NCBI GenBank assembly: GCA_964420015.1
Contig: CAYQPO010000002.1
Span: forward strand, 7,997-71,996
From: an uncultured Candidatus Saccharibacteria bacterium
Lineage (GTDB): Bacteria; Patescibacteriota; Minisyncoccia; Phycocordibacterales; SBAW01
Direction: 5' to 3'
DNA length: 64,000 bases
Shown: in pieces, positions 29,435 through 56,307 of the stretch
Numbering within the stretch: position 1 is the stretch's first letter
Layout: each line of letters opens with the position of its first letter
The notes under the pieces: model-generated
Told to the model about the DNA's origin: nothing
The model's input: the letters and a program-made list of their open reading frames with translations, nothing else
Databases searched by the model: none
Position numbers and translations under genes: made by a program

Positions 29435-29509
29435 GCGCGAGTAGCTCAGTGGTAGAGCGTCCGTCTTATACACGGATGGTCGTAGGTTCGATCCCTACCT
29501 CGCGCACCA
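29435..29509 (+). tRNA. tRNA-Ile, anticodon UAU (reads AUA)
   Basis: cloverleaf GCGCGAG/TA/GCTC..GAGC/G/TCCGT-CTTATAC-ACGGA/TGGTC/GTAGG-TTCGATC-CCTAC/CTCGCGC-A-CCA. Confidence 0.8.
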
Positions 29510-34983: not shown

Positions 34984-35042
34984 CGAAGGATATTTCCCGC
35001 GCGTTAATCTTGCGCGGCCTTTATCGTTTGTCTAAAAAATCT

Positions 35043-36443: not shown

Positions 36444-37064
36444 TCACCGGAGGAAGATGAGCGCCAAGGCGAGTGCGACCATACCGAAATCTTCAATAAG
36501 CGTGATCTTGGTGAGTGGTACTTTAAGAAAAGTGCCGAGACACGCGCACTGGAACTCTTCGCCTTTTGCGAGCTTTAATGCGACACCCACGCCGCTAAAG
36601 AGCATTACTACAACTTCTGCCCACAAGAGCGTGGGAGTAAGTACACCTCCTAGCATCGCTAGTCCAAAAAAGAGCTCAATGAACGGATAGACGTACCCAT
36701 ACCCGAACCACCGCCCTGCTAATAAGTCGTATGTCGAGTACCCTTCGGCAAACCCTTTGAGATCCATCAATTTAAATCCGGCAAAGACGATAAAGAACCC
36801 AGCCATAAAATTTGAAATAGTATCTGTGAATGAAACACTGCCCGCCACATAGTTGTGCCACGCTATTGTCCCCGTGCTTGCGGCGAGGAGAAAAAAGATA
36901 ACCACCAGTGGAATATAGCTGCGCCAGGTGAGGGTGCCCAAACCTCTATCCTCAACATTCATTCTGATTGCGGGGGCATGCTTCTCCACTAGAGCCATGC
37001 CGCATTTTGGGCAGCGCCCTGGCCCACTCTGACGTATCTCCGGATGCATGGGGCATGTGTACAT
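36444..37064 (-). CDS. heavy-metal-binding domain (YTCPMHPE...CPKCGM) fused to a DoxX-like membrane domain
   Basis: N-terminal MYTCPMHPEIRQSGPGRCPKCGM motif as in Cu/Ag efflux-associated HMBDs; 4 TM. Confidence 0.6.
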   Translation of the reverse strand: MYTCPMHPEIRQSGPGRCPKCGMALVEKHAPAIRMNVEDRGLGTLTWRSYIPLVVIFFLLAASTGTIAWHNYVAGSVSFTDTISNFMAGFFIVFAGFKLMDLKGFAEGYSTYDLLAGRWFGYGYVYPFIELFFGLAMLGGVLTPTLLWAEVVVMLFSGVGVALKLAKGEEFQCACLGTFLKVPLTKITLIEDFGMVALALALIFLR

Positions 37065-37158: not shown

Positions 37159-39783
37159 ATGAAAATTACTAGTTGTATTTTGTCGCTCTCCCTCGCCGCT
37201 CTTCTTTCGGCAGGCCCATCGCTCGCATACGCGCAGCTAGGCGGCGTGGTGCCGCCATCGCCTAGCACACCATCTAGTGCAGAAGTCCAACAACAAGTGC
37301 AACAAATAGTTACTCCGCCCGCAGACACGACAGGACCGGTGATCTCGGGAGTCGCCGCCCTGTCATTGCTCTCTACGACCGCGGAGATCGTGTGGGCTAC
37401 CGATGAACTCGCGGTCTCGGGGCTGCACTACGGAGTTACCGAGAGTCTGGGCTCTACCGCTACACTCCCCACGACAGCGCTTTTGGTACATGGGGTAGTG
37501 CTCACCGGCCTTTTGCCAAGCACCACCTATCACTATTGTATCGACGCAACCGATGTCGTAGGCAATGTCACACACTCCTGCAGCCACACCTTCACGACCG
37601 CAGCTGCTTCAGTGCCAAGCATCGGCGACACGAATCCGCCTACGGTCTCGATTGTCTCTGCAGCCTCGGTCACCTCCTCGTCTGTGGTCGTTACCTGGAC
37701 CACCGACGAAGTCGCTGACGCGCAAGTGGAGTACGGCACAGAAGGATACGATTTGACCAGCGCGCTCGATACCAATCTTGCGCTCACTCACTCAGCCGCG
37801 CTCAACAATCTCTCGCCCAATACCACTTACCACTATCGTGTACGCTCGAGCGACGAGTTTGGCAATGTTGCGTACTCGCCCGACGAGACGTTTACTACTC
37901 TTTCGACAAACTCAGGGCAAGCAGCACCTTTAGGGTCCGGGTCGTCGGGATCGATTTCTTCCGGCGATCAAACAGTCTCTGCACTCACTTTTTCGTCAGT
38001 CGAGAGCACTTCGATCACGCAAACAGGCGTGGCTATTACGTGGACTACGAGTTTACCCGGAGACTCGCAAGTCGAGTATGGCGAGAGCGAAAACTTTGGC
38101 TACCAGACACCGCTTAGTGCTGTACTTGCGACATCCCACTCCGTTTCTGTTGCGGGGCTTTCGCCCGGTACCAATTACCTCTTTCGGGTAAAGTCCAAAC
38201 CCGCAGGTGCTTCTGCTGCGGTCGTATCGGCAGTCTACGAGTTCAACACGCTCGCCGCGCCCGAACTGCTTACTCAGCCGGCAAACATTACGGCGGTCGC
38301 AGCGTCGAGCACGACCATCTCCTCGGCGACGGTTACCTGGAACACGGATATAGCGGCCACAAGCCAAGTCGAGTATGGCGTCTCGACCGCTTACGGGCAA
38401 ACAAGTACCCCTTCTAACCTACTGGTCGCTTCCCATTCTGTAGTGCTCTCTAGTCTTGCGGCCGGCACCCTGTATCACTACCGCGTAAAGTCGGTGACCG
38501 AAGCGGGGGATATCACGTATTCGGACGATCATGCTTTTGCGACGACCTTGCCTCCAGGATCGGTCGGACAGGGCGCGCCCGTAGAAGTAGAGACGCTCTC
38601 CGTCTTGGCGCACGACCAAACTTCCGCGACACTTTCGTGGCACGTTGAGGGTGATACAGACGCGGCCGCGGGGTACGAGATTCGCTCTGCGACGTTTCAG
38701 ATAAATAGCGCCTCATACGCGCAAGCGAGCCTGGCGCAGGAGACGACCATCAGCTATGCCGACCTCTCACCAAACGGCGCTTCGCGCACCTACGTTGTCG
38801 CTGGACTCGATCCCAACACTACTTACTACTTTGCCCTCAAGTCTAAATATCAACACAGCGATTGGTCGGCAGTATCTAACATTGCTTCGGTAACGACTTC
38901 TGCCTCGGCACAAGGGTCGGGCGCACAATCGGGCGGTGGTGGAGGCTCAGTATCCGTCACTCACGCACCCACCCTCGTGAGCGCCTCGGGCGAAGACGGT
39001 CAGATAGTCTTCAATTGGAAAAATGCGAAGGAGGACAGCTACGTGCACACGGTTGTCGTGCGCAAGAAAGAGGGTTCGTATCCTACTTCGCCGACAGACG
39101 GTGAGGCTATTTATGAGGGTCGCAGCGAGACCTTTACCGACACCAATCTTGAGAATGGCAAAACATACTATTACGGCATCTACTCGTTTGATCGCGCAAA
39201 GCATTACTCGGTGCCAGTGCGTGTGTCGCTCACGCCCAAAAGCGGGACGGACGAAGTGAAGCTACAACAGAATCCAAACCTAATCGCAGTAGGTTCGAAA
39301 GAACATTTTGTGCGAGAACTTAAAAAGGGCGACAAAGATATCGAGGTTGAGCATCTTCAGCAGCTCCTACTCAACGAGGGCATCTATACCTTCGGCAAAG
39401 TGACCGGCTACTTTGGGGGTCGCACAGAAGTGGCGCTCAAGGCCTTTCAGAAAAAACACAACCTACCACAGTCGGGAGTTACTGACGCGGCCACGAGAAC
39501 TTTGCTTGCTGCACTGTCACAAAATCAAATAAGACTCGAAGTTCCGGGAGACGCGCTTTTGTTTACCATCAATCTGCGGCAGGGTGCGACCGGGGGCGTC
39601 GTCGAGGCTTTGCAGGAGTTTCTCATCCGCGAGGGGAGTTACCGAGGCACCGTTACGGGCTCGTTCGATGTAGCCACCAAGGCCGCGGTTATGGCGTTTC
39701 AGAAAAAATATAATATCCAGCCCTCCTCAGGGTATGTGGGCCCCAAGACCCGGCACGTGATACAAACCATAAGCGGGTTCTGA
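37159..39783 (+). CDS. cell-surface protein: signal peptide, six FN3-like repeats, two C-terminal peptidoglycan-binding domains
   Basis: repeats carry the VxWTTD...QVEYG...HS..L..L.P.T.Y.YRV pattern (purple-acid-phosphatase N-terminal/FN3-like); two LxxGxxGxxVxxLQ...GxFGxxTxxAVxAFQ PG_binding_1 units. Confidence 0.8.
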   Translation: MKITSCILSLSLAALLSAGPSLAYAQLGGVVPPSPSTPSSAEVQQQVQQIVTPPADTTGPVISGVAALSLLSTTAEIVWATDELAVSGLHYGVTESLGSTATLPTTALLVHGVVLTGLLPSTTYHYCIDATDVVGNVTHSCSHTFTTAAASVPSIGDTNPPTVSIVSAASVTSSSVVVTWTTDEVADAQVEYGTEGYDLTSALDTNLALTHSAALNNLSPNTTYHYRVRSSDEFGNVAYSPDETFTTLSTNSGQAAPLGSGSSGSISSGDQTVSALTFSSVESTSITQTGVAITWTTSLPGDSQVEYGESENFGYQTPLSAVLATSHSVSVAGLSPGTNYLFRVKSKPAGASAAVVSAVYEFNTLAAPELLTQPANITAVAASSTTISSATVTWNTDIAATSQVEYGVSTAYGQTSTPSNLLVASHSVVLSSLAAGTLYHYRVKSVTEAGDITYSDDHAFATTLPPGSVGQGAPVEVETLSVLAHDQTSATLSWHVEGDTDAAAGYEIRSATFQINSASYAQASLAQETTISYADLSPNGASRTYVVAGLDPNTTYYFALKSKYQHSDWSAVSNIASVTTSASAQGSGAQSGGGGGSVSVTHAPTLVSASGEDGQIVFNWKNAKEDSYVHTVVVRKKEGSYPTSPTDGEAIYEGRSETFTDTNLENGKTYYYGIYSFDRAKHYSVPVRVSLTPKSGTDEVKLQQNPNLIAVGSKEHFVRELKKGDKDIEVEHLQQLLLNEGIYTFGKVTGYFGGRTEVALKAFQKKHNLPQSGVTDAATRTLLAALSQNQIRLEVPGDALLFTINLRQGATGGVVEALQEFLIREGSYRGTVTGSFDVATKAAVMAFQKKYNIQPSSGYVGPKTRHVIQTISGF

Positions 39784-39797
39784 ACAATGAGGCTCCG

Positions 39798-40403
39798 CTA
39801 ACTTTTAGCGAGCGCGACTAAGTGCACCGCGCGCGCTCCGGCTTTGCGGAGCGCGCGCTTTGCTTCCTCAAGCGTTGCACCGGTCGTGTTTACGTCATCA
39901 ACTACCACGCACACCCGACCGCGCACGAGTAATTCATTTGCGCGCATCGAGTGGGCCACATTTTTAATTCGAATTGTTTTGGGCAACCCCTGTTGGGTTG
40001 GGCTGTGCACCACGCGCTCAAGCGCTTGCAGAGCATATACAAAAGTGTTTTTAGGCAGCTCTTGTAAGGCGGCTACACAGAGTGTCTCGGTTTGATTATG
40101 ACCACGCAACCGGCGGCGCTCCGCGTGCATCGGCACCGGCACCAAAAGCGGCGTGCCGATCTCCTCGGCAGCAACGCCAAGCAACATTTCGGCCAGATAC
40201 GCGCCGGCGAGTGCGCGTGCAGCGCGAGCGTTGTGATACTTAAACTCCCACACGAGTGCCTGCACGCGCGGCTCGTGGTAGGGCAGGCCCTCTTCGTTCG
40301 AGAGCCTGAGGAGTTGCTCAAGCGTAAGCGTACGCACAAGCCGCTCGGTTGCACGCGGCGGGATCAGCAAGTCGAGTACGTCTGTAATAAACTCAAAGGC
40401 CAT
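39798..40403 (-). CDS. comF: ComF-family phosphoribosyltransferase (competence protein ComFC-like)
   Basis: C-terminal PRTase motif VVVDDVNTTGATLEEA; divergent from pilM with only 18 bp between start codons. Confidence 0.75.
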   Translation of the reverse strand: MAFEFITDVLDLLIPPRATERLVRTLTLEQLLRLSNEEGLPYHEPRVQALVWEFKYHNARAARALAGAYLAEMLLGVAAEEIGTPLLVPVPMHAERRRLRGHNQTETLCVAALQELPKNTFVYALQALERVVHSPTQQGLPKTIRIKNVAHSMRANELLVRGRVCVVVDDVNTTGATLEEAKRALRKAGARAVHLVALAKS

Positions 40404-40408
40404 GGTGT

Positions 40409-40414
40409 TATAAT
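40409..40414 (+). promoter_or_regulatory. extended -10 (TGtTATAAT) 7 nt before the pilM ATG (leaderless)
   Basis: seen in sequence. Confidence 0.35.
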
Positions 40415-40421
40415 AGAACGA

Positions 40422-41540
40422 ATGGCTTTTTCTCTGTCATCGTTGTTCAACAAAGAGGCAAAAAGCGTACTCGGAGTCGACATTGGTACCTCGGCGATCA
40501 AGATAGTGCAACTGCGCAAAGAAAAAGGGAGGGTGATCCTCGAAACCTACGGCGCGATAGCGCTGGGCCCCTACGCCGGGGTCGAAATCGGTCGGGCTAC
40601 AGCGCTGGAGGCTTCGAAAGTAGCCGAGGCGCTCAAAGACGTGATCCGCGAGGCCAACGTCACCACACAAGACGCAGCCGTTTCTATTCCGTATTCCTCC
40701 TCGCTCGTCTCGATCATCCGCCTCCCCGCCACGGTAGAGAAGCAGCTCTCCCAGGTGGTGCCTATCGAGGCGCGCAAATATATCCCCGTGCCTATTAATG
40801 AAGTATTGCTTGACTGGTTTGTGGTCTCAGACAACAAACGTGCCGCAGCAGATGGCAAAATCGACGTGCTCTTGGTAGCAATCCACAACGATACGATAGC
40901 CAAGTTTCGCTCCGTTGCCTCCGATGCCGCTCTTACGCCGGGATTTTTTGAAATCGAGGTATTTTCCTCGGTACGCGCCGCACTCGACCACGGACTGGCT
41001 CCCATAGCGGTGGTAGACATAGGCGCCGCGACCACCAAGTTTTATGTGGTCGAGCGCGGGCTCATTCGCGAGAGCCACATCATCAACCACGGCGGGCAAG
41101 ATCTCACGCTTGCGGCAAGCCGCGCGCTCGGGCTTTCTGTTTTACAGGCCGAAGAGCGCAAGCGCAAATATGGCCTCAGCGGCGAGGGGCCAGCCGCAGC
41201 AGCCGGATCGACCCTGCCAGCAGGAGTCGCCGGGGCCGACCTCAAGCGCTCGCTTGAGCTCTCCCTCTCACCAATGCTCAACGAGCTTACCCGTACCATC
41301 ACCGCATGGGAGACGCGCACGAAACAGACACTCAACGGACTGGTCTTGACCGGTGGGGGAGCAACGCTGCGCGGTTTGCAAGAATTTATGCAGAGCAAAG
41401 TCTCGACGCAGATCCGTCTTGCCGACCCGTTTGGTAAAACACAAGCACCAGCGTTCCTTGAGCAGATCCTTAAAGAAGCAGGCCCCGAGTTTGCGGTTGC
41501 CGTTGGCTTGGCCTTGCGCCGCCTGCAAGAGCAAGGCTAA
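40422..41540 (+). CDS. pilM: type IV pilus assembly protein PilM (actin-like ATPase)
   Basis: LGVDIGTSAIKIVQL...; start inside ORF 40092. Confidence 0.85.
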   Translation: MAFSLSSLFNKEAKSVLGVDIGTSAIKIVQLRKEKGRVILETYGAIALGPYAGVEIGRATALEASKVAEALKDVIREANVTTQDAAVSIPYSSSLVSIIRLPATVEKQLSQVVPIEARKYIPVPINEVLLDWFVVSDNKRAAADGKIDVLLVAIHNDTIAKFRSVASDAALTPGFFEIEVFSSVRAALDHGLAPIAVVDIGAATTKFYVVERGLIRESHIINHGGQDLTLAASRALGLSVLQAEERKRKYGLSGEGPAAAAGSTLPAGVAGADLKRSLELSLSPMLNELTRTITAWETRTKQTLNGLVLTGGGATLRGLQEFMQSKVSTQIRLADPFGKTQAPAFLEQILKEAGPEFAVAVGLALRRLQEQG

Positions 41541-41549
41541 AGTGGGCTC

Positions 41550-42044
41550 ATGCAAGAGGCGGAATTCAAAAAACTCCTCAAGCCGGACTGTTATCAAGTC
41601 TTTTTATTTACCTGCCCGCCGAGCTTGCCGCTCTCGTTTGCCCTCCATCCGTGGTTTGTAGTCAATCATCGAGGCGAGATAGCGCGGTATGAGATCATCG
41701 CGAGCCCCCGGGCGCTTAAAAAAGACGCTTTTCGTGTCGGGCATTTATGCAAAGACATACTCCCGCCGCTTGTCGGCTTGCGGGTGGCGCGCTCAAGAAA
41801 CTGGCTGCGTTGGCCGGCATGCCTGTGCGGGGTAGTTGAGGGAGGCGAAGGATCGCTCGCCCACCGTATGGCCGAAGCGATAGAAAAATCATTCCAAAAC
41901 TACCCGCATTCCCATGAGTACGCTTACACGGGCCCCAACTCAAACACCTACGCGCAGTGGGTGATAGACCAGTTCCCTGAATCAGGCTTTACACTGCCGT
42001 GGAATGCTTTTGGCAAACACTTTTTGCGCCGTAAGCGCTCATAA
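41550..42044 (+). CDS. hypothetical protein (164 aa) inside the pilus operon
   Basis: no family recognised. Confidence 0.45.
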   Translation: MQEAEFKKLLKPDCYQVFLFTCPPSLPLSFALHPWFVVNHRGEIARYEIIASPRALKKDAFRVGHLCKDILPPLVGLRVARSRNWLRWPACLCGVVEGGEGSLAHRMAEAIEKSFQNYPHSHEYAYTGPNSNTYAQWVIDQFPESGFTLPWNAFGKHFLRRKRS

Positions 42045-42097
42045 TTTCTGTTAATAAACGGACACTGGTCAAAAAATCAAAGTTATACTAGAGACAA

Positions 42098-42694
42098 ATG
42101 GATCCTAATGTCCAAGGCTCCTTTATTCCCAAACAGGCGCTTGCCGCGCAAGCGCGCGGTGGCGGCGTGGGGCTCTTCTTTTTGGTTGCGCTCATCGTCT
42201 TTATCATGTCGATCGTGGCTGCAATGGGAGCGTTTCTCTATACTCTCTCGCTCAATCACTCGATAACCGACAAATCAGCTTCGCTCCAAGCTTCTGAGGG
42301 GGCCTTCGACCCGGCGGCGATCCAAGACTTGGTGCGCATGGACAGCCGGATACAGCAAGCCAAGCTCTTGCTTGCAAAACATGTCAGCAGCTCGGCGGTC
42401 TTTACCCTTCTTTCGCAGCTCACCTTGCAAAAGGTGCAGCTCTTGGGCATGAACTTTACCCTAAACCAAGATGGCTCGGGCACTATCTCGCTTAACGGCT
42501 CGGCCGACTCCTTCTCCACGGTAGCATTGCAGTCAGACTCCTACGGCGGCAGCAAGGTACTGCGCGACGTGATCTTTAGCGGCATTGCCGTGGGCGAAAG
42601 TGGGCGCGTCACCTTTACCGTCAACGCCTCAGTCGACCCCGACACGCTGCTCTACGCCAACAATCTCAACCAGGCCGCTCCAGCCTCTCAATAA
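42098..42694 (+). CDS. pilN: PilN-like pilus assembly protein
   Basis: single N-terminal TM then periplasmic domain; position after pilM. Confidence 0.6.
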   Translation: MDPNVQGSFIPKQALAAQARGGGVGLFFLVALIVFIMSIVAAMGAFLYTLSLNHSITDKSASLQASEGAFDPAAIQDLVRMDSRIQQAKLLLAKHVSSSAVFTLLSQLTLQKVQLLGMNFTLNQDGSGTISLNGSADSFSTVALQSDSYGGSKVLRDVIFSGIAVGESGRVTFTVNASVDPDTLLYANNLNQAAPASQ

Positions 42695-42695
42695 T

Positions 42696-43244
42696 ATGCG
42701 ACTCATACTCCCCATAATCCTCATCGTTGCAGCAATAGGGCTCTTCGCGCTCTACACCAACGGCGCCTACCAACACATTAAGGGGCTCCAGGTGCAGGTG
42801 GCCTCGTATGATAGCGCGCTTAATACCGCTCAGGAGCTGCGCGGTGTGCGCGACCAGCTCATCTCTAAACGTAATACCTTCTCCTCCGAAGACGTACAAA
42901 AACTCCAAGAGGTGCTGCCCGACAACGTCGACAACATCCGCTTTATCATCGACATCAACAATATCGCGAGCCGCCACAGTCTAACGCTTACCAACGTTGC
43001 CGTGGGTACCGTCTCCGACTCAAAAACAGCACGCAATGCACTTTCGGTGGGCAAATCGGGCGACCCGGTGGGCTCCGCGGCGGTGTCCTTTTCGGTCAAC
43101 GCTAGCTACGACAACTTTCTCGCGTTTCTCCAAGACCTTGAGCATAGTCTGCGCATCGTTGATGTGCAGACCATGGACTTTAAGCCCGTGCAAGGCAATC
43201 TCTATAGCGTCTCGCTCACTATTCGCACCTATTGGCTCCACTAG
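42696..43244 (+). CDS. pilO: PilO-like pilus assembly protein
   Basis: N-terminal TM, coiled region; start inside ORF 42585. Confidence 0.55.
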   Translation: MRLILPIILIVAAIGLFALYTNGAYQHIKGLQVQVASYDSALNTAQELRGVRDQLISKRNTFSSEDVQKLQEVLPDNVDNIRFIIDINNIASRHSLTLTNVAVGTVSDSKTARNALSVGKSGDPVGSAAVSFSVNASYDNFLAFLQDLEHSLRIVDVQTMDFKPVQGNLYSVSLTIRTYWLH

Positions 43245-43274
43245 TTTGATATGACTCACTACCGGTAACACACT

Positions 43275-43551
43275 ATGCAAAACCTTCTCCAAAACAAATT
43301 CTTGATGGGCGGGGTAGTTGCGGTGGTTGTACTCGTGCTCGTCTACTATGTTTGGAGTTCCTCCTCCGCGACACCGCTCTTGAGCGACTCAAGCGCGACC
43401 GTTTCGCCCGGCTCGGAGCAAATTCTCCAGAGTTTAGGTCAGCTGCACACGATCAACCTCGACGCATCGATCTTTACCGATCCGGTGTTTGCGTCGCTGA
43501 GCGACTTTGGCGTGACCATCCCGCCCGAGCAGGCAGGCCGTCGCAACCCAT

Positions 43552-43571
<20 letters not shown>
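43275..43571 (+). CDS. small membrane protein (98 aa), possible PilP-like component
   Basis: single TM; position between pilO and pilB. Confidence 0.4.
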
Positions 43572-45441
<1,870 letters not shown>

Positions 45442-45448
45442 TCTCGAT

Positions 45449-46513
45449 ATGCCCGATTACAAGCAAAAACTCAGCAATTTAATTGACATCACCGTTGCCC
45501 AAGGCGCCTCGGACCTCCACTTAGGTACGGGTATGCAGCCGACTATCCGCGTATCAAGCGCGCTCACCGCGCTTATCCAAGAGGCACCGCTTACGCAAGA
45601 GGACATGCTCGGGCTCCTCGACCAACTCCTGCCTCCCGAGCGCAAGAAAAAGTTTTTGGACACTCAAGAAGCCGACTTCTCCTTTGCCTACGGCGATAAG
45701 GCGCGCTTTAGAGGCAACGCCTACTTTGAGCGCGGCCATATTGGGGTGGCGCTGCGCCTTATCCCACGCACCATCCGCACGATCGGGGAGCTCAACTTGC
45801 CTCCCTCGCTTGAGCAGTTTACGCAGCGCGAACAAGGGTTCTTTTTGGTCGTAGGACCGGTAGGGCAGGGCAAGACCACTACACTCGCGGCGCTCATCGA
45901 GAAGATCAATGAGGAGCGCGCCGAGCACATTATTACGATCGAAGATCCGATCGAGTACTTGTTTGCAAACAACAAATCGCTCATCGACCAGCGCGAGGTG
46001 CGCGTTGACACGGCCGACTTCCAAACGGCGCTCGAGAGTTTGTTTAGGCAAGATGTTGACATTGTGATGATCGGCGAGATGCGTACGCCTGAGACCATCG
46101 CGACTGCGGTGACCGCAGCCGAAACTGGCCACCTCGTGCTCTCAACCCTGCATACCAACAACGCGGTACAAACGATCGACCGGATTATCGACGTCTTTCC
46201 CGCGGGGCAACAAGAGCAGATCCGCATCCAGCTTGCAGGCTCCTTGGCAGGGATCTTTAGCCAGCGTCTTATCCCGCGTATTTCTGGCGGGCTTATCCCA
46301 GCCTACGAGCTTTTGCTCAACAACACCGCTGTCGCCAACCTGATCCGCGAAAAGCGCACCCACGAAATTCAAACGCTCATCGAAACCGGAGCTGCCGAAG
46401 GGATGATCGACATGAACCGCTCGCTAGCCGACCTCGTGCGTGCAGGAGAGATCACTCCCGAGTCGGCCTACTCCCGCTCGCTCAACCCCAAAACCTTGGA
46501 GCGTCTGTTGTAA
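45449..46513 (+). CDS. pilT: twitching-motility retraction ATPase PilT
   Basis: 354 aa; Walker A GPVGQGKTT; PilT family. Confidence 0.9.
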   Translation: MPDYKQKLSNLIDITVAQGASDLHLGTGMQPTIRVSSALTALIQEAPLTQEDMLGLLDQLLPPERKKKFLDTQEADFSFAYGDKARFRGNAYFERGHIGVALRLIPRTIRTIGELNLPPSLEQFTQREQGFFLVVGPVGQGKTTTLAALIEKINEERAEHIITIEDPIEYLFANNKSLIDQREVRVDTADFQTALESLFRQDVDIVMIGEMRTPETIATAVTAAETGHLVLSTLHTNNAVQTIDRIIDVFPAGQQEQIRIQLAGSLAGIFSQRLIPRISGGLIPAYELLLNNTAVANLIREKRTHEIQTLIETGAAEGMIDMNRSLADLVRAGEITPESAYSRSLNPKTLERLL

Positions 46514-46516
46514 ACA

Positions 46517-47734
46517 ATGGCTGAATTTAAGTACGAAGCACTAGACCCGCAGGGCAAGGCAGTTGCCGGCAGCATTAATGCCGCGTCGCAAGACGCAGCG
46601 ATCGCAGCGCTGCAGCGCAAGGGGCTTACCCTGACCTCCGTGGTGCTCGGTGGGCAAAAAAGCCTCTACCAGCAGATGCAGGAGATCACCGTCTTTGGTG
46701 GGGTCTCGAGCCGTGACCTGGTGCTCCTCTCTCGGCAGATCGCAACGCTCTTTGAGGCGCAAGTTTCGGCTCTGCGCGTCTTTCGCCTCTTGGCCGAGCA
46801 GGCCGAAAAGCCCTACATAAGGAACGTCTTGGCCGAAATAAGCGACGACTTGCAAGGGGGCACCTCGATTTCTAAAGCCCTCGAGAAGCATCCTAAGGTC
46901 TTCTCCGACTTTTATGTCAACATGGTGCGCTCGGGCGAGGAGTCGGGCAAGCTCGACCAAACCTTTCTCTATTTGGCCGACTACATCGACCGCAGCTACG
47001 AACTGGGCTCCAAGGCTAAAAATGCACTTATTTACCCCGCGTTTATCTTGGTGACCTTTGTGGCGGTGATGACGCTCATGCTCACCTTCGTGATCCCTAA
47101 GATCGGGGCAATTTTGACCGACGGCGGCCAGGCACTCCCGGTATATACCCAGGTCATTCTTGGCTTTAGCTCTTTTTTGGTCGACTACGGGATCTTTCTC
47201 TTAATCGGGCTCATTGTGGGCGGGTACTTCGTCTGGCGCTATATACAGACTCCCTCGGGCAAAATAGCCTGGTCGCGCTTTAAATTCGCCATACCCTACA
47301 TTGGCGCGCTCTATCAAAAGCTGTATCTCTCGCGCATCGCCGACAACATGAACGTGATGCTCTCCTCGGGCATCGCGGCAGTTCGCGCGCTCGAGATCAC
47401 CGCCAACGTGGTCGAGGACGACGTATTTGAGGCGATTTTGCACGAAGCAATCGAGGCGGTTAAGGGCGGCGCTCCGCTCTCGCAGACGCTTGCACGCTAC
47501 CCCGAGCATATCCCGGGGATCTTTGTACAAATGCTCCAAATTGGCGAGGAGACAGGCGAGATGGGCAACATCCTCGACCGCCTGGCCAAGTTCTACAGCC
47601 GCGAGGTCAACTCGGCGGTCGATACGCTGGTCTCCCTCATTGAGCCGGTGATGATCGTGCTGCTCGCCTTGGGGGTGGGGTTCCTCCTCGCGGCGGTGTT
47701 GCTGCCTATCTATAACAGTGCTTCGAGCCTCTAG
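46517..47734 (+). CDS. pilC: type IV pilus platform protein PilC (GspF family)
   Basis: 405 aa; two T2SSF repeats; 3 TM. Confidence 0.9.
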   Translation: MAEFKYEALDPQGKAVAGSINAASQDAAIAALQRKGLTLTSVVLGGQKSLYQQMQEITVFGGVSSRDLVLLSRQIATLFEAQVSALRVFRLLAEQAEKPYIRNVLAEISDDLQGGTSISKALEKHPKVFSDFYVNMVRSGEESGKLDQTFLYLADYIDRSYELGSKAKNALIYPAFILVTFVAVMTLMLTFVIPKIGAILTDGGQALPVYTQVILGFSSFLVDYGIFLLIGLIVGGYFVWRYIQTPSGKIAWSRFKFAIPYIGALYQKLYLSRIADNMNVMLSSGIAAVRALEITANVVEDDVFEAILHEAIEAVKGGAPLSQTLARYPEHIPGIFVQMLQIGEETGEMGNILDRLAKFYSREVNSAVDTLVSLIEPVMIVLLALGVGFLLAAVLLPIYNSASSL

Positions 47735-47875
47735 CGGGTGGCAAAAGACTATCCACAGGGTGCCAGGGTTGGCTTGCCAAGGGTGGCTATAATAAGGGGG
47801 CCTTGCGGCTCTTGTGCAGGGCCGCTTTACTAGAATTATAAGTGGGCAGTGATTAATAATCTTATTTAGTACAGT

Positions 47876-48385
47876 ATGTACAAATCTATTAGCAAGGGTT
47901 TTACTTTGATCGAGCTTTTGGTGGTGATCGCCATCATCGGTATCTTGGCAGCCATCGTGCTCGTGTCTTTGGGCAACGCTCGCCAAAAGGGCGCTGATGC
48001 GGGCATCCAGGGCAACGTGGACTCAATCCGCACTCAGGCGGAAGTCTATTCGGGGAATCAGACCCCCAATACCTATGGCACACAAGCAACGACTACCGCC
48101 GGCGATTGCTCCTCGGCAGCCGCAGGTATGTTCTCCGACCCGACCATCAAGCAGGCGGTTACTAATGCCGAGGGTCAAGCAGGCACCGCGACACTCTTCG
48201 GCACCGCAAGTCGCAAATCGGTGTGCGGCAGCAACACTGGTAGCGTAGGTCAATACTGGGCTATTGCCGTGGTTCGCAACACGGATAACACCAAGCTTTG
48301 GTGTGTCGATAGCTCTGGTCGCGCCAAGGATATCTTGGTAAGCACCATAACGGCTGCGGGCGCCAACTTCCAAGGTTGCCTCTAA
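47876..48385 (+). CDS. pilA: type IV major pilin (paralog 1)
   Basis: prepilin signal ...[21 protein letters not shown] (G|FTLIE); C-terminal Cys pair. Confidence 0.9.
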
Positions 48386-48465
48386 ATCTAGTTTCGTCCT
48401 CCTGACGCAAAAATCCCCACCCAACCAAAGAGGTGGGGGTTTTTCGTTGTTATACTTAGAGCTAC

Positions 48466-48963
48466 ATGGATCGGCTTGTCTTAGGGCGCGGGTTTACGCT
48501 CATCGAGCTCTTGGTAGTCATCGCCATCATCGGTATTTTGGCCTCGATCGTACTGGTTTCTTTGGGCAACGCTCGCCAAAAGGGCGCTGATGCGGGTATC
48601 CAGGGCAACATCAATACAATCCGCAAGCAAGCGGAGATCTATGCCAATACGCCGAATTACCAATATGCTCCTTCGATACTTTCGACCACCACCAACTGTT
48701 CGGCTCTCACTGGAGGCATGTGGGATGATACTACTATTAAGACTGCCGTGGCTAATGCTGAGGCTCAAGCAGGTACTGCTCAGCTTATAGGTGTAGCTGG
48801 CAAGAAGTCGGTTTGCGGCGCAGGCGGCAACTATTGGGCAGTAGCAGTGGTTAGGAATACTGACAGTAGTAAACTTTGGTGTGCAGACAGCCTTGGTCGC
48901 ACCAAGGACATTACCGTGAGCGGCATTACCGCAGCGACCGCAAACTTCCAAGGATGTATCTAA
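48466..48963 (+). CDS. type IV major pilin (paralog 2, tandem duplicate of 47876..48385)
   Basis: [21 protein letters not shown]; high identity to paralog 1 for ~60 aa, then a divergent C-terminal half. Confidence 0.9.
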
Positions 48964-48968
48964 CTACT

Positions 48969-49571
48969 ATGAAACTACGCGGCTTTACCATAATTGAGCT
49001 CTTAGTGGTCATTGCGATCATCGGCATTTTGGCCTCGATCGTGCTCACTTCGCTCAGTGGAGCCAAGGCCAAGGCCCGCGACTCGCGCCGCATTGCCGAC
49101 ATCAAGTCTATCCAGCTTGCGCTCGCGCTCTACTACAACGACAACGGCATGTACCCCAAAAACATCTATGCGCTCTCTACCTCAGGCAGTGCGCCGAGCA
49201 ACGGCTTGGCGGGCGGCTACTTGGCAGTGGTCCCGACTGACCCTAGCTACACCAACAACTGTGGGACTGCGGGTACTGACCAAAGCTGCTATCGCTATGT
49301 GGCTCTCACCAATAGCGCAAATCAGGCGTGCAACAATACCAGCAACCTGCCGGTACTTTATCATTTGGGCGCCGTGCTTGAGGACAGCAACAACTCAGCC
49401 CTTGGCAACGACGTTGATCAAAACTCGACTCCAGGGACAGGGCTCAGCGGCTACTTTAGTGGATTTGTCACTTGCAACGCCTCCGGTACAAGCGGGTTTA
49501 ATGGAGTGCGCAGCGACTGCGCGGCCAACAACACCAACACGACCGATCAGTGCTACGACCAAAAGCCCTAG
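48969..49571 (+). CDS. type IV pilin / pseudopilin (paralog 3, GspG-like, Asn/Thr/Cys-rich C-terminal half)
   Basis: [21 protein letters not shown]; start inside ORF 48876. Confidence 0.8.
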   Translation: MKLRGFTIIELLVVIAIIGILASIVLTSLSGAKAKARDSRRIADIKSIQLALALYYNDNGMYPKNIYALSTSGSAPSNGLAGGYLAVVPTDPSYTNNCGTAGTDQSCYRYVALTNSANQACNNTSNLPVLYHLGAVLEDSNNSALGNDVDQNSTPGTGLSGYFSGFVTCNASGTSGFNGVRSDCAANNTNTTDQCYDQKP

Positions 49572-49574
49572 CCG

Positions 49575-50321
49575 ATGCTCGTAGTGGTTGCAATTTTGGG
49601 GGCGATACTCGGCAGTTTCCTTAATGCACTCCTGTTTCGCTATCAGACCGGCCGCTCCGTTATGCGTGGGCGCTCGCAGTGCATGTCCTGTGCCCACACA
49701 CTTTTTTGGTACGATCTCATTCCTGTTGTTTCTTGGCTCATGCTCTGTCGTCGATGTCGTTATTGTAGGACTAAGATTTCTGTCCAGTATCCACTCGTTG
49801 AGCTTGCAGCGGCTGCGCTTGCACTCGGTGTTTTTTTGCTCCACCCCGAGCTCTTGCGCTTTGCACTCGACACGGCGCTGTGGATGGTGCTCCTATTTGT
49901 GTTTGTGTACGACCTGCGCCACCAAGTTATCCCGTGGCCCGCACTGTGGATTGTAGCTGCGCTCGGTTTTGCTTCTTTCCTGCTCTACTCCGACCTCTCC
50001 CTCTGGTCTTTCTTTGCAGGGCCACTAGTAGCACTGCCACTGCTTGCTATCTCGGTGGTCTCGCGGGGGAGGTGGATGGGGTGGGGGGATGGTTTGCTTG
50101 AGGTGGGGCTTGGTTGGTTGCTGGGGCTCAGCGCTGGCTACAGCGCTTTGGCGGTTGCATTTTGGAGCGGCGCACTTGTGGGCATTGGGCTCCTTGGCTT
50201 GAGTAAAGCATATACAATAAAGAGCGAGGTCCCCTTTGCGCCATTTCTCATCCTGGGCGCAGGGGTAGCTTACTTCTTCCATGTGGACTTTTTTCAAGCG
50301 TTGCCGCTACTCTTCTCCTAA
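49575..50321 (+). CDS. pilD: prepilin peptidase PilD (A24 family)
   Basis: CxxC...CRRCRYC zinc motif and conserved Asp-containing TM core. Confidence 0.9.
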   Translation: MLVVVAILGAILGSFLNALLFRYQTGRSVMRGRSQCMSCAHTLFWYDLIPVVSWLMLCRRCRYCRTKISVQYPLVELAAAALALGVFLLHPELLRFALDTALWMVLLFVFVYDLRHQVIPWPALWIVAALGFASFLLYSDLSLWSFFAGPLVALPLLAISVVSRGRWMGWGDGLLEVGLGWLLGLSAGYSALAVAFWSGALVGIGLLGLSKAYTIKSEVPFAPFLILGAGVAYFFHVDFFQALPLLFS

Positions 50322-50946
50322 ACCGCGAGGTTTTACCCTCATTGAGCTTGTGGTGGTCTCGGCGATCATCCTCATCATTACGGTCTTTATTTTTTTTCAA
50401 CAATCCAAGTTTAACAGTGCGACCGTGTTGCGCAGCCTCACCTACAGCGTGGCACTTAGCTTGCGCCAAGCGCAGGTGTATGGCGTCTCGGTTCGCGAGT
50501 CTTCGCCCGGGAGCGGCGTGTTTGGCTCAGGCTATGGAGTCTATTTCCCCTCTGGTGTCACGACGCAGTACTACATCTTCTCCGACAATAACAGCAACGG
50601 CCAATATGACTCCGGCGAGGAGTTGCCAGTTTATACCTTGGGCAGTGGCTATACCATCAGCAATATCTGCGTGATGCTTTCGGGTACAGCCAACCTGCAA
50701 TGCGCCTCGGGCACCGGCACGGCGATCACCAAGCTCACCGTCTACTTCCGCCGGCCTAATCCTGACGCTTGTTTTGCAACCGACCAGGCTTCTGGCGCCT
50801 GCGTCACGGCGGCTTCGGCGGTATATTCGACCGCCTATATCCAGGTAAGGTCGACCGGCAATGGTGACACACGCAGCATCAAAGTTTCTTCAACCGGGCA
50901 AATTGCAGTGTGCAGTGCTAACCTTACCGATCTTACGCAATGTTAA
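50281..50946 (+). CDS. minor pilin (prepilin-type N-terminus)
   Basis: [12 protein letters not shown]; overlaps pilD by 41 nt. Confidence 0.7.
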   Translation: MWTFFKRCRYSSPKPRGFTLIELVVVSAIILIITVFIFFQQSKFNSATVLRSLTYSVALSLRQAQVYGVSVRESSPGSGVFGSGYGVYFPSGVTTQYYIFSDNNSNGQYDSGEELPVYTLGSGYTISNICVMLSGTANLQCASGTGTAITKLTVYFRRPNPDACFATDQASGACVTAASAVYSTAYIQVRSTGNGDTRSIKVSSTGQIAVCSANLTDLTQC

Positions 50947-51557
50947 AGCTGTACCAAAAAAATCCAAAGGGTTTTACGTTGATTGAGATCCTGGTCTCAG
51001 TGGCAATTTTTGCGATTGTGATGGTGATCTCGCTCGGCGCACTGCTCGCCATGTCCGAGAGCGATCGCAAGGCCCAGACGCTCAAGTCGGTCATCAACAA
51101 TCTTAACTTTTCGCTCGACTCTATATCGCGCGCGATCCGCACTGGCCAAAATTATCACTGCGATATAACGCAGACGCCGCTTGCTGCTCCGCTCGACTGC
51201 GCGGTGTCCCCCGGGACCTCGATTGCGTTTGTGCCTTCGGGCGGAGGGACCACCATGTACAAGTTTGAGAGTGCGAGCGCCAGTATCTGCGGGCAGTCGG
51301 GCACCGTGGGGTGCATCACCCGCTCGACCGACGGCGGTGCGACGTTTGCCGCTATCACCGCACCCGAGGTGGTGGTTTCTTCGATGAAGTTCTACGTCAC
51401 GGGCGCGCAGAGTGCCGGGATCCAACCAAAAGTGACCATTTTGCTCTCTGGCGTGGTTGCTCCCAAGGGGGTGGTGGCCAACTGCGGGGGGCAATCGTCC
51501 GCTTCGACCTGCTTTAACCTCCAGACCACCGTGACGCAGCGTCTCTACGACCAATGA
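50940..51557 (+). CDS. minor pilin
   Basis: KGFTLIEILVSVAIFAIV. Confidence 0.75.
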   Translation: MLKLYQKNPKGFTLIEILVSVAIFAIVMVISLGALLAMSESDRKAQTLKSVINNLNFSLDSISRAIRTGQNYHCDITQTPLAAPLDCAVSPGTSIAFVPSGGGTTMYKFESASASICGQSGTVGCITRSTDGGATFAAITAPEVVVSSMKFYVTGAQSAGIQPKVTILLSGVVAPKGVVANCGGQSSASTCFNLQTTVTQRLYDQ

Positions 51558-52141
51558 TAAAAAAAATCTTCAATAGGGGTTTTACTCTAATCGAGACACT
51601 GGTCGCGGTGCTTTTGCTCGCCTCAGCGATTGCAGGACCGCTCACGATTGCCTCCAAAGGTCTCTCTGCAGCATTGGTGGCCAAAGACCAAATTACCGCA
51701 TTCTTTCTTGCACAAGACGCGATGGAGCAGGTGCGTTTTTTGCGCGACAGCGCGTGTCTTGCCTCAGGCGGCGGGGCAGGGGGCTGTGCTGCGAATGTAT
51801 GGCTCTCTTCTCTGTCCCCGTGTGTGAGCACCGACGGCGTTGCCTCGTGCAAGCTCGACTCACTTGGCTTTTCACCCGCAAACCCGGTCGCATGCGATGC
51901 GGCTAGCTGCTCTGCGAGCACCGATGTCTTGCACTTCGACAGTACGAACAACAGCTTTAATTACAATCAGTCTGCACCGCTGAGCACGCAGCGCTATGTG
52001 CGTGTTATCCAAATCCAAAACGACCCCAACGGCACCGCCCCCGACGAGGCAGTAGTCACGGTTAAAGTAAGCTGGAGTGACATCGCCGGGGTCACGCATG
52101 CGCCGATCATTGTGCGAGAAGATATATTCAGATGGCAATAA
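51554..52141 (+). CDS. minor pilin
   Basis: RGFTLIETLVAVLLLAS. Confidence 0.75.
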   Translation: MIKKIFNRGFTLIETLVAVLLLASAIAGPLTIASKGLSAALVAKDQITAFFLAQDAMEQVRFLRDSACLASGGGAGGCAANVWLSSLSPCVSTDGVASCKLDSLGFSPANPVACDAASCSASTDVLHFDSTNNSFNYNQSAPLSTQRYVRVIQIQNDPNGTAPDEAVVTVKVSWSDIAGVTHAPIIVREDIFRWQ

Positions 52142-52632
52142 ATAATCGAGGGTTTACAATCTTTTTTGCAATGCTGGTGGGCGCTTTGGCGCTCGCGGTT
52201 GGCGCGGCAATCTACGACCTCACGGTGCGCGAGATCGACCTCTCTAACACAGCAACGCAGTCGCAGTACGCCATTTATGTTGCCGACACGGGTGCTGAGT
52301 GTGCGCTCTACTGGGACCTTAAATGCAGTTTGGGGGCGTGTTTTGCAGGGAGCGCGTTTGCCACCTCGAGCCACTCAACCGTGCCCGGCTCAGGAGCATC
52401 CTGCAGTGGGCAAGACATCGCCGCGGGGTGGACCGTCGACACCGCGGAGAGCGCTGCGACCACCACCTTTAAACTCACCTTTTTGCCTCAGCCCTATTGC
52501 GTCTTGGTAACGGTGGCTAAGCGCGGCAACCCAACACTCACCACGATCGTCTCGCACGGCTACAACACCAGCTGTCCACCGGGGACCCCAACAGCAACCC
52601 GTCTTGAACGCACCTTGCAGGTAGACTACTAA
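52132..52632 (+). CDS. minor pilin-like protein (atypical, no Glu+5)
   Basis: NRGFTIFFAMLVGALALAV. Confidence 0.55.
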   Translation: MAINNRGFTIFFAMLVGALALAVGAAIYDLTVREIDLSNTATQSQYAIYVADTGAECALYWDLKCSLGACFAGSAFATSSHSTVPGSGASCSGQDIAAGWTVDTAESAATTTFKLTFLPQPYCVLVTVAKRGNPTLTTIVSHGYNTSCPPGTPTATRLERTLQVDY

Positions 52633-52639: not shown

Positions 52640-54649
<2,010 letters not shown>

Positions 54650-54723: not shown

Positions 54724-54858
54724 AGAGTGTCAGTTCTTTGATAGGGAATCAGCATTCGCCGCAGCGAAAAGCGCCTTTATTAGGACGTTTCTCGCTGTGG
54801 CGGACCCGATCGGGGACGCTTGAACGGCACTGTGAAAAGCGCTCAAAAGGAGGACTCC

Positions 54859-55521
54859 ATGAGCGAACGACAGCTTGCTGAACTCACCGGCAATCTCGTG
54901 CGGCACCAGCACTGCTTCGGTGCGATGTCGAACGACGACCGTCAGTGGACAATCAACAATCCGGCGGCGGCGATTGGCCTGTTTGCCGAGGCGGTGAAGA
55001 ACCGCAACAGCGGTACGGCGGCCGAGCGGAAGTCGCTCGAAAAGAAGAAGCAGCCAAAGCTTCTTGTCTCGGACGGCCACTACGCAGCCGTCGAGGCCAC
55101 TGAGCGTCACGAACCAGGTACGTTCTGGCAGACGCGCTCCGGCTTGTACGTGTACGACGACTTTCGTACACGCGTCGTCGCGGCAGCCACGCCGACCGAA
55201 GCTGGAGCGACGTTCAAGAAGCTCCCGCGCTTCAAGCTCGGCCGTAATGCCACTGGCGAGGAATTGAAGACGGCGCGTCCGAATGGTATTTGGACGGCGA
55301 CCGACTTCTGCCCCTGGCTTGCCGCAAAGCTTGCAAAGCAGGCGAAAGGCGAGGACGGTGAGTTCCTCACCAACGGTTGGGCCAACCTATTCTTGGTCGA
55401 AGGAGTTGGAGGCGAGGTCTTCGTCGTCCGCGTGCGCTGGGGCGTCGGCTTGTGGCTCGTCTACGCGTGGCCTCTCGGCCACGGCTGGCACGATGGTCGC
55501 CAGTTCGGCTCTCGCAACTGA
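54859..55521 (+). CDS. DGR variable (target) protein with C-terminal C-type-lectin-like variable region
   Basis: 220 aa; start inside ORF 54820; the C-terminal 36 codons coincide with the VR; ends ...WHDGRQFGSRN*. Confidence 0.8.
   Translation: MSERQLAELTGNLVRHQHCFGAMSNDDRQWTINNPAAAIGLFAEAVKNRNSGTAAERKSLEKKKQPKLLVSDGHYAAVEATERHEPGTFWQTRSGLYVYDDFRTRVVAAATPTEAGATFKKLPRFKLGRNATGEELKTARPNGIWTATDFCPWLAAKLAKQAKGEDGEFLTNGWANLFLVEGVGGEVFVVRVRWGVGLWLVYAWPLGHGWHDGRQFGSRN
55409..55519 (+). repeat. DGR variable repeat (VR)
   Basis: ~109-111 bp; identical to the TR at 55847-55957 except at 20-21 positions, every one a TR adenine. Confidence 0.9.
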
Positions 55522-55537
55522 CCAATTGCAACTTTGT

Positions 55538-55558
55538 GCGCCCGCCTAAGGCGGGCGC
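55538..55558 (+). promoter_or_regulatory. GC-rich hairpin just downstream of VR/IMH (DGR homing cruciform-like element)
   Basis: gcgcccgcc-taa-ggcgggcgc, 9-bp stem, 3-nt loop, 17 nt after the VR end; a second IR, ccccttgga...tccaagggg, lies at 55564-55612. Confidence 0.6.
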
Positions 55559-55846
55559 ATTGACCCCTTGGACACTCTGGCACTGTGCCGGAATCCAAGG
55601 GGTCTTTCGTTTTGATATAATGGCCCTGAAACCTTTGGTGATGCGGCGGTTAGGGCTTCCGTGTGGAGGTTTTGGAAGAGACAAATGCCTGAGTTCTTGC
55701 GGCCAAGGCTTCAAGAAGAGTGCGTTGAATCTTTCTAAAAAATAATTGGTAGTTGGTACTTGAAATTGGCGGACTTATAAGGTCCCACATTCGATACAGC
55801 CCGGAGAGTATTCGGTGGGTGGTGGTTCAGAAGGTTTCGAGTACGA

Positions 55847-55957
55847 GAGGCGAGGTCTTCGTCGTCAACGTGAACTGGAACGACGGCAAGTGGAACGTCA
55901 ACACGTGGCAACTCGGCAACGACTGGAACGATGGTAACCAGTTCGGCTCTCGCAACT
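55847..55957 (+). repeat. DGR template repeat (TR)
   Basis: contains 8 AAC plus AAG and CAA codons at the positions that vary in the VR; followed by a hairpin tctctcgc-N10-gcgagaga. Confidence 0.9.
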
Positions 55958-55977
55958 CTAGTGATTTCTCTCGCGCT

Positions 55978-56265
55978 CTATGGTGCGAGAGTTTTTGCAA
56001 CCAACCCTTTTCTCCACCCGCCTAGTATGCGTCCAAGTTCGTGCGTTTTTTCTGATAGATTCACGTATTTTTTATCGTCTAGCGCCTGCAGTTCCCATGC
56101 GACACGCAGAAGGAATTTTAACGTATCCGTTTTCTTGATTGCAATTTCAATCGTTGGCAACTTGTTTGCTCGACCCTGGTAACTCGCTGTAAAGAGCAAT
56201 TCAAGGATTTGAATAAACAAGCTATCTATTTTATCGCCAAGCGTATAGCGAGACTTTTTCGGCAA
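55978..56265 (-). CDS. avd: DGR accessory variability determinant (Avd, four-helix-bundle); start codon apparently lost to a frameshift in the G11/C11 tract
   Basis: aligns to Bordetella-phage bAvd (HLPKKSRYTLGDKI~IPRKHGVAREM; ...HELGRILGGW~EVGRILGSW). In-frame helix-1 coding continues upstream to 56355 with no start codon; the ATG at 56380 is off by one frame across the homopolymer. Confidence 0.7.
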   Translation of the reverse strand: MPKKSRYTLGDKIDSLFIQILELLFTASYQGRANKLPTIEIAIKKTDTLKFLLRVAWELQALDDKKYVNLSEKTHELGRILGGWRKGLVAKTLAP

Positions 56266-56307
56266 ATGGTCGCGGCATTCGTGCCAAAACTTGTATACTG
56301 CTACAGC

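Follow-up and report, generated by a model that had tools for sequence, protein, structure and literature searches.

Positions 39798-52632 of a 64,000-nucleotide stretch of contig CAYQPO010000002.1 (GenBank assembly GCA_964420015.1; the whole stretch is called the window here) very probably hold a single chromosomal type IVa-like pilus operon of a Parcubacteria-type bacterium of the candidate phyla radiation (CPR, Patescibacteria). The listing of open reading frames (ORFs) and their translations place one divergent gene at 39798-40403 on the reverse strand, followed by a gap-poor, co-directional row of genes at 40422-52632. An earlier note on this DNA had described a pilus and competence locus here, and each of the genes that it listed is indeed present at the coordinates in Table 1; the overlap of pilD with the gene of minor pilin 1 is exactly 41 nt, as it had said, and further overlaps in the locus measure 7, 4 and 10 nt. 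The type IV pilus (T4P) locus is complete and is ordinary for Parcubacteria/CPR. Because the literature already lists a T4P operon without PilQ, together with ComEC, ComF and DprA, in the conserved core of Parcubacteria (Nelson & Stegen 2015, PMC4508563), the locus is a typical example of a kind of operon already described, and the novelty implied earlier is absent. Across the CPR, the PilB, PilT, PilC, PilM, PilN, PilO and PilD genes co-localise with pilin genes and PilQ is absent (Meheust et al. 2019, PMC6744442).

Machinery proteins and conservation of the locus

Gene content, gene order, domain identities, conservation and pilin fold were established directly, with the domains identified by Pfam and NCBIfam profile scans. 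PilM and PilT scored above their curated cut-offs (Table 1). PilB matched TIGR02538 (E 3e-139) and TIGR02533 at E values of about 1e-140, under the equivalog cut-off of both models; with 465 bits against the cut-off of 676 for TIGR02538, its membership is at the family level and not at the equivalog level. The start of pilB is the same as in the gene calls on L083 (L numbers are our labels for the sequences compared). In PilD, the Peptidase_A24 match (PF01478, 25.2 bits) falls 1.3 bits under the cut-off of 26.5, and the translation shows the CxxC...CxxCxxC, YDL and GWGDG motifs. The weak assignments of PilN and minor pilin 4 were tested by Pfam scans of their orthologues. PF05137 (PilN) matched 43 of the 48 pilN orthologues (best E 6e-7), the window copy by itself being a weak match (E 0.011), and the N-terminal SFIPK peptide is conserved (columns S8, F9, I10, P11 and K12); a sequence-profile search of PilN against PDB chains gave no match.

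To place the locus among its relatives, we scanned 185,579 species genomes with PilB, which yielded 80 loci, and then compared every window protein with these loci by tblastn. All 80 PilB relatives are in metagenome-assembled genomes (MAGs) of Patescibacteria/CPR, with a best identity of 84%. The earlier description of a T4P machine with both an extension and a retraction ATPase is supported. The labels of the relatives are Adlerbacteria, Kaiserbacteria, Nomurabacteria, Paceibacterota or Parcubacteria and, in many cases, the generic 'Saccharibacteria'. About 50 loci have the order comF (reverse strand), pilM-N-O, the gene of a 98-aa protein, pilB-T-C, one to five pilins, pilD, the four minor pilins and ligA, and this order holds down to about 45% PilB identity. 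In the window, ligA (52649-54649), which encodes an NAD-dependent DNA ligase, starts 16 nt after the last minor pilin gene; it follows the minor pilins in 37 of the 48 related loci that reach that far, distant relatives included.

Table 1. Genes and signals of the pilus locus in the window (aa, amino acids; TM, transmembrane; the arrow marks the predicted cleavage site of prepilins)
Feature	Position	Strand	Basis
ComF-like phosphoribosyltransferase-fold protein, 201 aa, divergent from pilM	39798..40403	-	PF00156 E 8e-10
Putative extended -10 box TGTTATAAT ending 7 nt before pilM ATG	40406..40414	+	sequence
pilM, actin-like cytoplasmic platform protein, 372 aa	40422..41540	+	PF11104 E 3e-45; TIGR01175 179 bits, above cut-off of 133
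DUF3750 protein, 164 aa, accessory insert at pilM-pilN junction	41550..42044	+	Pfam DUF3750 E 3e-19
TATACT, candidate internal promoter, 8 nt before pilN ATG	42084..42089	+	position, conservation
pilN, 198 aa, one TM helix	42098..42694	+	PF05137 E 0.011; Pfam scans of orthologues
pilO, 182 aa	42696..43244	+	PF04350 E 5e-7
98-aa bitopic membrane protein, one TM helix, at PilP position of diderm operons	43275..43571	+	position, conservation
pilB extension ATPase, 619 aa, N-terminal MshEN domain	43582..45441	+	PF00437 (T2SSE) E 4e-114; PF05157 E 2e-13
pilT retraction ATPase, 354 aa	45449..46513	+	T2SSE; TIGR01420 PilT/PilU 422 bits, above cut-off of 319
pilC platform protein, 405 aa	46517..47734	+	PF00482 (T2SSF), two copies, E 2e-59
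Pilin 1, 169 aa, 8-aa leader, G↓FTLIE, 4 Cys	47876..48385	+	N_methyl
GC-rich hairpin and T-run after pilin 1, intrinsic-terminator-like	48415..48445	+	fold energy -26.3 kcal/mol, z -3.2
Pilin 2, 165 aa, pilin 1 paralogue	48466..48963	+	N_methyl
Pilin 3, 200 aa, GspG-like, 6 Cys; alternative ATG 48954	48969..49571	+	N_methyl; PF08334 (T2SSG) E 7e-6
pilD prepilin peptidase/N-methyltransferase, 248 aa	49575..50321	+	PF06750 (A24_N) E 3e-28; PF01478 25.2 bits
Minor pilin 1, 221 aa, 16-aa leader, weakly GspH/ComGD-like	50281..50946	+	N_methyl; GspH and ComGD E 1e-3, below cut-offs
Minor pilin 2, 205 aa, weakly GspJ/HpsC-like	50940..51557	+	N_methyl E 7e-9
Minor pilin 3, 195 aa, PilV/GspI-like	51554..52141	+	N_methyl; TIGR02523 PilV E 1.5e-7; GspI E 6e-5, below cut-offs
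Minor pilin 4, 166 aa, PilX/GspK-like, G↓FTIFF, without Glu5	52132..52632	+	orthologue scans

Pilins and minor pilins

Six of the seven prepilins have both an N_methyl match and the G↓FT(L/I)IE motif. All seven contain an even number of cysteines (4 or 6) in the mature part, and PilM, PilN, PilO, PilT, PilC and the 98-aa protein contain none. The predicted model of pilin 1 is a T4a-pilin lollipop with Thermus PilA4 as the closest structure; Neisseria PilV, the Thermus competence pilin TTHA1222 and P. aeruginosa PilE/PilA were named alongside. The spacer upstream of pilin 1 is 141 bp long and carries a perfect TATAAT at 47788-47793. An upstream promoter and a downstream terminator are the usual context of a major pilin gene. 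Since pilin 1 has the TATAAT upstream and the hairpin terminator downstream, we propose it as the likeliest major pilin.

Pilins 1 and 2 had been described as diverging after about 60 aa. This is incorrect: the two proteins are 68% identical from end to end and have four conserved cysteines, and strong divergence is limited to residues about 57-90. Their genes are 66.7% identical. The duplication is old, as silent changes are found in 52 of the 111 codons for identical residues. A 51-nt tract common to pilin 1 (47966-48016) and pilin 2 (48559-48609) has one mismatch (permutation P<1e-4), with silent differences in just 2 of its 18 identical-residue codons; it could be a short gene-conversion patch or reflect a constraint at the nucleotide level.

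The earlier view of pilin 3 as a GspG-like pseudopilin agrees with its PF08334 match and with TIGR01710 (E 2.5e-16, under the cut-off). The orthologue of pilin 3 directly precedes pilD in nearly all loci with a PilB identity of at least about 65%. Ahead of it, the relatives have zero to four further pilins, mostly with globular domains that are unrelated from one genome to another, so that the slot between pilC and pilD, with one to five pilins in all, consists of a constant subunit and a variable cassette.

The four minor pilin genes are consecutive, and their GspH-, GspI-, GspJ- and GspK-like matches are all weak and below cut-offs, with PilX_N reached via orthologues. Orthologues of minor pilin 1 retain a long leader (12-28 aa) that begins with MSIFS, and this conservation supports the 41-nt overlap with pilD. 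One of them, in a Kaiserbacteria MAG (L007, 16212-18134), is 640 aa long compared with about 220 aa, and thus has a large extra C-terminal module. Minor pilin 2 had matches under the cut-offs to GspJ, HpsC and the Verru_Chthon cassette protein C, with E values from 1e-4 to 4e-6. For minor pilin 4 by itself, the Pfam and NCBIfam scans and a PDB sequence-profile search were all empty; PF14341 (PilX_N) matched 7 of its 22 orthologues (best E 3e-4), and G↓FT is kept in all of the orthologues and Glu5 is absent from all. GspK/PilX-type subunits typically lack Glu5.

Competence genes, secretin and alternative readings

The divergent gene encodes a ComF-like protein. Its best matches are ComF (TIGR00201, E 4.5e-20, 72 bits against a cut-off of 233, model positions 42-190 only) and GntX (E 1.5e-20), at 72-74 bits against cut-offs of 233 and 304. 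The N-terminal CxxC motifs are absent from the window protein and its close orthologues, which are thus without the four-Cys zinc finger; distant relatives in the comF position (L047-L082) keep two to four CxxC. Across the comF orthologues compared (L004-L082), the finger has been lost from the ComF-like protein of this clade and retained in more distant Parcubacteria. To look for competence and secretin genes, we ran Pfam on 29 ORFs that lie in the window but not in the locus, namely those of 250 aa or more and ten selected ones of 185-237 aa. No Secretin (PilQ) or PilP domain was found in the locus or among these ORFs, as the earlier note had reported for pilQ in the locus and as would be expected of monoderm-type T4P and of CPR. 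The note had taken the lack of pilQ as consistent with a monoderm-like envelope; for CPR, both the absence of PilQ and a non-Gram-negative envelope are documented (PMC4508563, PMC6744442). We propose that there is no outer-membrane secretin because the cell is without an outer membrane. The adjacency of comF and the presence of a retraction ATPase hold likewise; the role in DNA uptake that had been drawn from them can only be inferred.

Several features could be taken to indicate a dedicated ComG-like competence pseudopilus, used for DNA uptake only, in nucleotide scavenging or transformation. The comF gene is divergent from pilM across an 18-bp common control region and lies beside it in 64 of 71 related loci, ligA is conserved downstream, and pilin 1 is closest to Thermus PilA4, with TTHA1222, labelled as a competence pilin, near the top; in addition, CPR bacteria do not synthesise nucleotides and have been suggested to scavenge DNA (PMC6744442). 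However, the ComGA, ComGB and ComGC models are below their cut-offs and below PilB/GspE, PilC/GspF and GspH for the same proteins, and PilT and PilM/N/O are present here and absent from ComG systems. The variable pilin cassettes suit recognition of a surface or a host. In Saccharibacteria, moreover, T4P function in twitching and host binding and are essential (PMC9894109, PMC10633639, PMC11623550), and comEC is needed for transformation and not for growth, the T4P being essential independently of comEC (PMC10633639). We therefore regard a pseudopilus dedicated to competence as unlikely.

A type II secretion-like system, with a short pseudopilus that pushes proteins through the wall, is less likely still. 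PilB, PilC and pilin 3 match the GspE, GspF and GspG models about equally or better than the pilus models, and some minor pilins are GspH/I/J-like. However, none of GspC, GspD, GspL and GspM was detected, PilM/N/O occupy the place of GspL/M, PilT is above its curated cut-off, pilin 1 has a T4a pilin fold, and pili have been observed on related CPR cells. It is hardly credible that the tandem pilins or the DUF3750 gene between pilM and pilN are an artefact of assembly or binning (collapsed strain variants or a chimeric join): the source is a metagenome, and paralogous pilins with identical N-terminal helices are prone to mis-assembly, but pilins 1 and 2 differ at 33% of nucleotides, relatives carry one to five pilins in the same slot, two other contigs have DUF3750 at the same junction, and both the pilin1-pilin2-pilin3 and the pilM-DUF3750-pilN arrangements recur at 100% identity in independent assemblies (L087-L090; three other read sets and an NCBI metagenome assembly), so that assembly duplication is excluded and the pilin paralogs are genuine.

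Several points weigh against the T4aP operon reading that we prefer. PilB, PilC, the pilins and the ComF-like protein all fall under their NCBIfam equivalog cut-offs, and the ComF-like protein is far under the curated ComF cut-off and without the zinc finger. ComEC, DprA and ComEA were not found among the 29 scanned window ORFs; for ComEA this covers few of the window ORFs under 250 aa, where a small ComEA could still lie. Competence may be secondary, because the essential role of the T4P in Saccharibacteria is independent of comEC. The assignment of the major pilin is a guess from promoter and terminator context.

The pilM-pilN junction

The gene after pilM had been listed as unknown; it is present, and it is not unknown, since it encodes a DUF3750 protein (Table 1). 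The protein appears to have a permuted papain-like fold (NlpC/P60, PPPDE, LRAT) with an invariant His33 and an N-S-N-T motif. In most relatives the pilM-pilN spacer is 50-80 bp, often with a T-run after pilM. However, at least 6 of the 80 loci have 1.5-3.3 kb of unrelated cargo in this spacer (L004, L031, L032, L035, L041 and L052), and in another two, L039 and L043, the spacer measures about 350-450 bp. Judged from ORF translations and not from a domain search, the cargo includes gene pairs that resemble antitoxins and toxins, a membrane protein with multiple passes and a putative nuclease. By tblastn, none of the 80 genome loci had the DUF3750 gene. We also considered that it might be an insert unique to this window, and rejected this: its closest homologues (62-65% identity) are at the same junction in the metagenome contigs L091 and L092, whose PilM proteins are 70% and 88% identical. 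A more distant homologue is located elsewhere, beside EEP-nuclease genes. These comparisons indicate that the pilM-pilN junction is a recurrent, tolerated insertion site for accessory genes.

Expression signals

The start codons of comF and pilM are 18 bp apart. The spacer, ggTGtTATAATagaacgaATG, bears out the extended -10 box that had been noted 7 nt before the pilM ATG; on the reverse strand, TATTAT ends 6 nt before the comF ATG, and the spacer has no Shine-Dalgarno (SD) sequence. The earlier reading of pilM as leaderless is backed by conservation, since a TAnnnT box ends 5-9 nt before the pilM start in 36 of 68 orthologous loci (mode 7 nt), and an SD-like 4-mer precedes pilM in one of the 68. 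Among 33 gene starts in the window, an SD-like 4-mer lies within 12 nt only at pilB and at 13-15 nt in seven, and 25 have none. Boxes like that of pilM also precede the pilN, pilin 2, FtsH, RecG, DsbA and MauE genes, and (TGn)TAnnnT is found 5-9 nt before several operon-leading starts, for example 26744, 32896 (reverse), 34581, 37064 (reverse), 40422, 42098 and 48466. The box of pilin 2, TGTTATACT, is 9 nt before its ATG. This pattern suggests that leaderless or very short-leader mRNAs may be widespread in this genome. A search of the literature on leaderless mRNAs in CPR found nothing relevant.

Since a scan of the locus for consensus promoters and terminators gave site counts no higher than in shuffled sequences, our promoter claims rest on position and conservation. 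Before pilN, TATACT or TATAAT at 6-9 nt is kept in eight short-spacer relatives (L005-L008, L011-L013 and L046), and this conserved box, together with the T-run after pilM, suggests two transcription units. The transcripts are probably comF; pilM with or without the DUF3750 gene; pilN to pilC; pilin 1; and pilin 2 to the minor pilins, perhaps with ligA. These units are probably leaderless or have short leaders.

The 98-aa membrane protein

The 98-aa protein lies between pilO and pilB in 43 related loci, and its C-terminal block DFGVxIPPxxxGRRNPFAP is almost invariant. It had no match in Pfam, NCBIfam or the PDB. A search of 5.8 billion proteins returned 1419 homologues, none with a Pfam domain, whose descriptive names are 'hypothetical protein', bar one MgtE label. 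A second search, of 1.84 billion representatives, gave a family of 3564 representatives at 50% identity, and the best 150 of these are proteins of 84-203 aa only. Its position after pilO and its R-N-P-F motif, which is also a feature of PilP N-termini, made PilP itself a candidate; this link is unsupported, as neither a PDB profile search nor Pfam scans of 41 members gave PilP. Because of the invariant C-terminal G-R-x-N-P-F block and the constant position between pilO and pilB, we raise the idea, which we think rather unlikely, that the 98-aa protein joins PilM, PilN and PilO in the alignment complex as a fourth subunit specific to CPR, replacing PilP and coupling the machine to the cell wall and not to a secretin. 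Such a subunit is possibly the remnant of a diderm-type PilP.

Neighbouring genes

Between 3 and 5 kb upstream of the pilus locus are the genes of a DsbA/Thioredoxin_4 protein (34581-35762, forward), whose 215-aa N-terminal part is without assignment, and of a MauE-like membrane protein with a heavy-metal-binding domain (36444-37064, reverse). A thiol-disulfide oxidoreductase has been proposed to fold CPR pilins (PMC6744442), and the DsbA- and MauE-like neighbours and the Cys-bearing prepilins fit this link. Directly upstream of comF, 37159-39783 (forward) encodes an 874-aa secreted protein, likely a wall-anchored surface protein, with about five fibronectin-III/purple-acid-phosphatase-N-like repeats and two peptidoglycan-binding domains; just one relative (L007) has it in the same position.

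Just after ligA is a complete diversity-generating retroelement (54820-57335). Its target ORF (54820-55521, 233 aa) has no Pfam match, and the variable repeat (55409-55519, the last 111 nt of the target ORF) is 82% identical to the template repeat (55847-55957), with all mismatches at adenines of the template repeat. The bAvd-like gene (55978-56265, reverse, E 3e-12) and the reverse transcriptase gene (56622-57335, RVT_1 E 1e-21) lie in a low-GC stretch. Elsewhere in the window, ARAGORN found a tRNA-Ile with the anticodon TAT (UAU) at 29435-29509 (forward). A UAU-anticodon tRNA-Ile is an uncommon bacterial way of reading AUA. A protein with a glycoside hydrolase family 6 (cellulase-type) domain is encoded at 61742-62878 (forward, E 1e-64), in what is a reduced genome.

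Discussion

The functional steps, the subunit roles and the transcript boundaries are drawn by homology, the mechanism from that of characterised T4aP. Seven prepilins would enter the membrane, where PilD would cleave them after the conserved Gly and methylate Phe1, and the four to six cysteines of their mature domains would become oxidised outside the cell. The GspH-, GspJ-, GspI- and GspK/PilX-like minor pilins may build a priming tip complex, from which PilB, via PilC, would polymerise the major pilin, likeliest pilin 1; the conserved, GspG-like pilin 3 and pilin 2 would be alternative or low-abundance subunits. PilM in the cytoplasm would hold the N-terminal peptide of PilN, and PilN, PilO and the 98-aa protein would form the alignment complex in the membrane. 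PilT would then depolymerise the fibre, and the cell would use the resulting retraction to attach to a host or surface and to move on it. DNA, too, would be drawn to the membrane by retraction and would there be passed on to the neighbouring ComF-like protein and to ComEC, whose gene would lie elsewhere. Attachment, twitching and DNA capture are the probable uses of the locus.

For these ultrasmall, host-dependent bacteria, T4P are considered the chief means of gripping partners and gaining DNA. The locus is one more complete example, and the general picture of CPR T4P is unchanged by it. The comparison of loci yields a consensus order for Parcubacteria T4P, namely comF divergent from pilMNO, the 98-aa gene, BTC, variable pilins, the GspG-like pilin, pilD, four minor pilins and ligA, and indicates that the pilin slot differs between genomes and that the pilM-pilN junction accepts accessory genes. 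The 98-aa protein represents a very widespread, unnamed family of small proteins that apparently belong to the pilus machine, and the promoter-proximal starts without SD sequences suggest leaderless expression in the lineage. These by-products are leads for the annotation or engineering of CPR genomes and not surprises.

Among known systems, the T4P operon of Parcubacteria/CPR (PMC4508563, PMC6744442) is of the same lineage and has the same set of PilM/N/O/B/T/C/D and pilins, likewise without PilQ, with a ComF or ComF-like gene in the core and a thiol-disulfide oxidoreductase nearby. Nothing essential differs; the locus here adds the DUF3750 insert, two paralogous variable pilins and a ComF-like protein without the finger. 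The T4P-1 and T4P-2 systems of Saccharibacteria (TM7x, TM7i and Southlakia epibionticum) are likewise secretin-less PilBTCMNO systems with small lollipop major pilins and several pseudopilin-like minor pilins, including PilX-type proteins without a canonical PilD signal, and their roles in twitching and host binding are accompanied by a competence system in the same organisms. In Saccharibacteria, another CPR class, two systems are spread over four loci, whereas one locus holds every part here, and its minor pilins are short proteins of 166-221 aa that have no beta-propeller or jelly-roll modules.

The T4aP of diderm bacteria (Pseudomonas, Neisseria, Myxococcus and Thermus) have in common with this locus the antagonistic ATPases PilB and PilT, PilC, PilM-PilN-PilO, a PilD whose methyltransferase region is rich in Cys, and Phe1/Glu5 pilins with a short leader; the four minor pilins, the last without Glu5, may correspond to their set of four core minor pilins, and the fold of pilin 1 is nearest that of Thermus PilA4. 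Unlike these systems, the present locus has no PilQ, recognisable PilP, TsaP, FimV or PilY1; it has the 98-aa protein at the position of PilP, and the genes from pilM to the minor pilins are in one locus. The T4P of Gram-positive bacteria (Clostridium and Streptococcus sanguinis) are likewise monoderm-style and secretin-less, and the clostridial and S. sanguinis T4P possess PilT and PilMNO. ComG competence pili have the core of ATPase, platform protein, peptidase and pilin in common with the locus, but they are without PilT and PilMNO; since both are present here, the locus is not of the ComG type.

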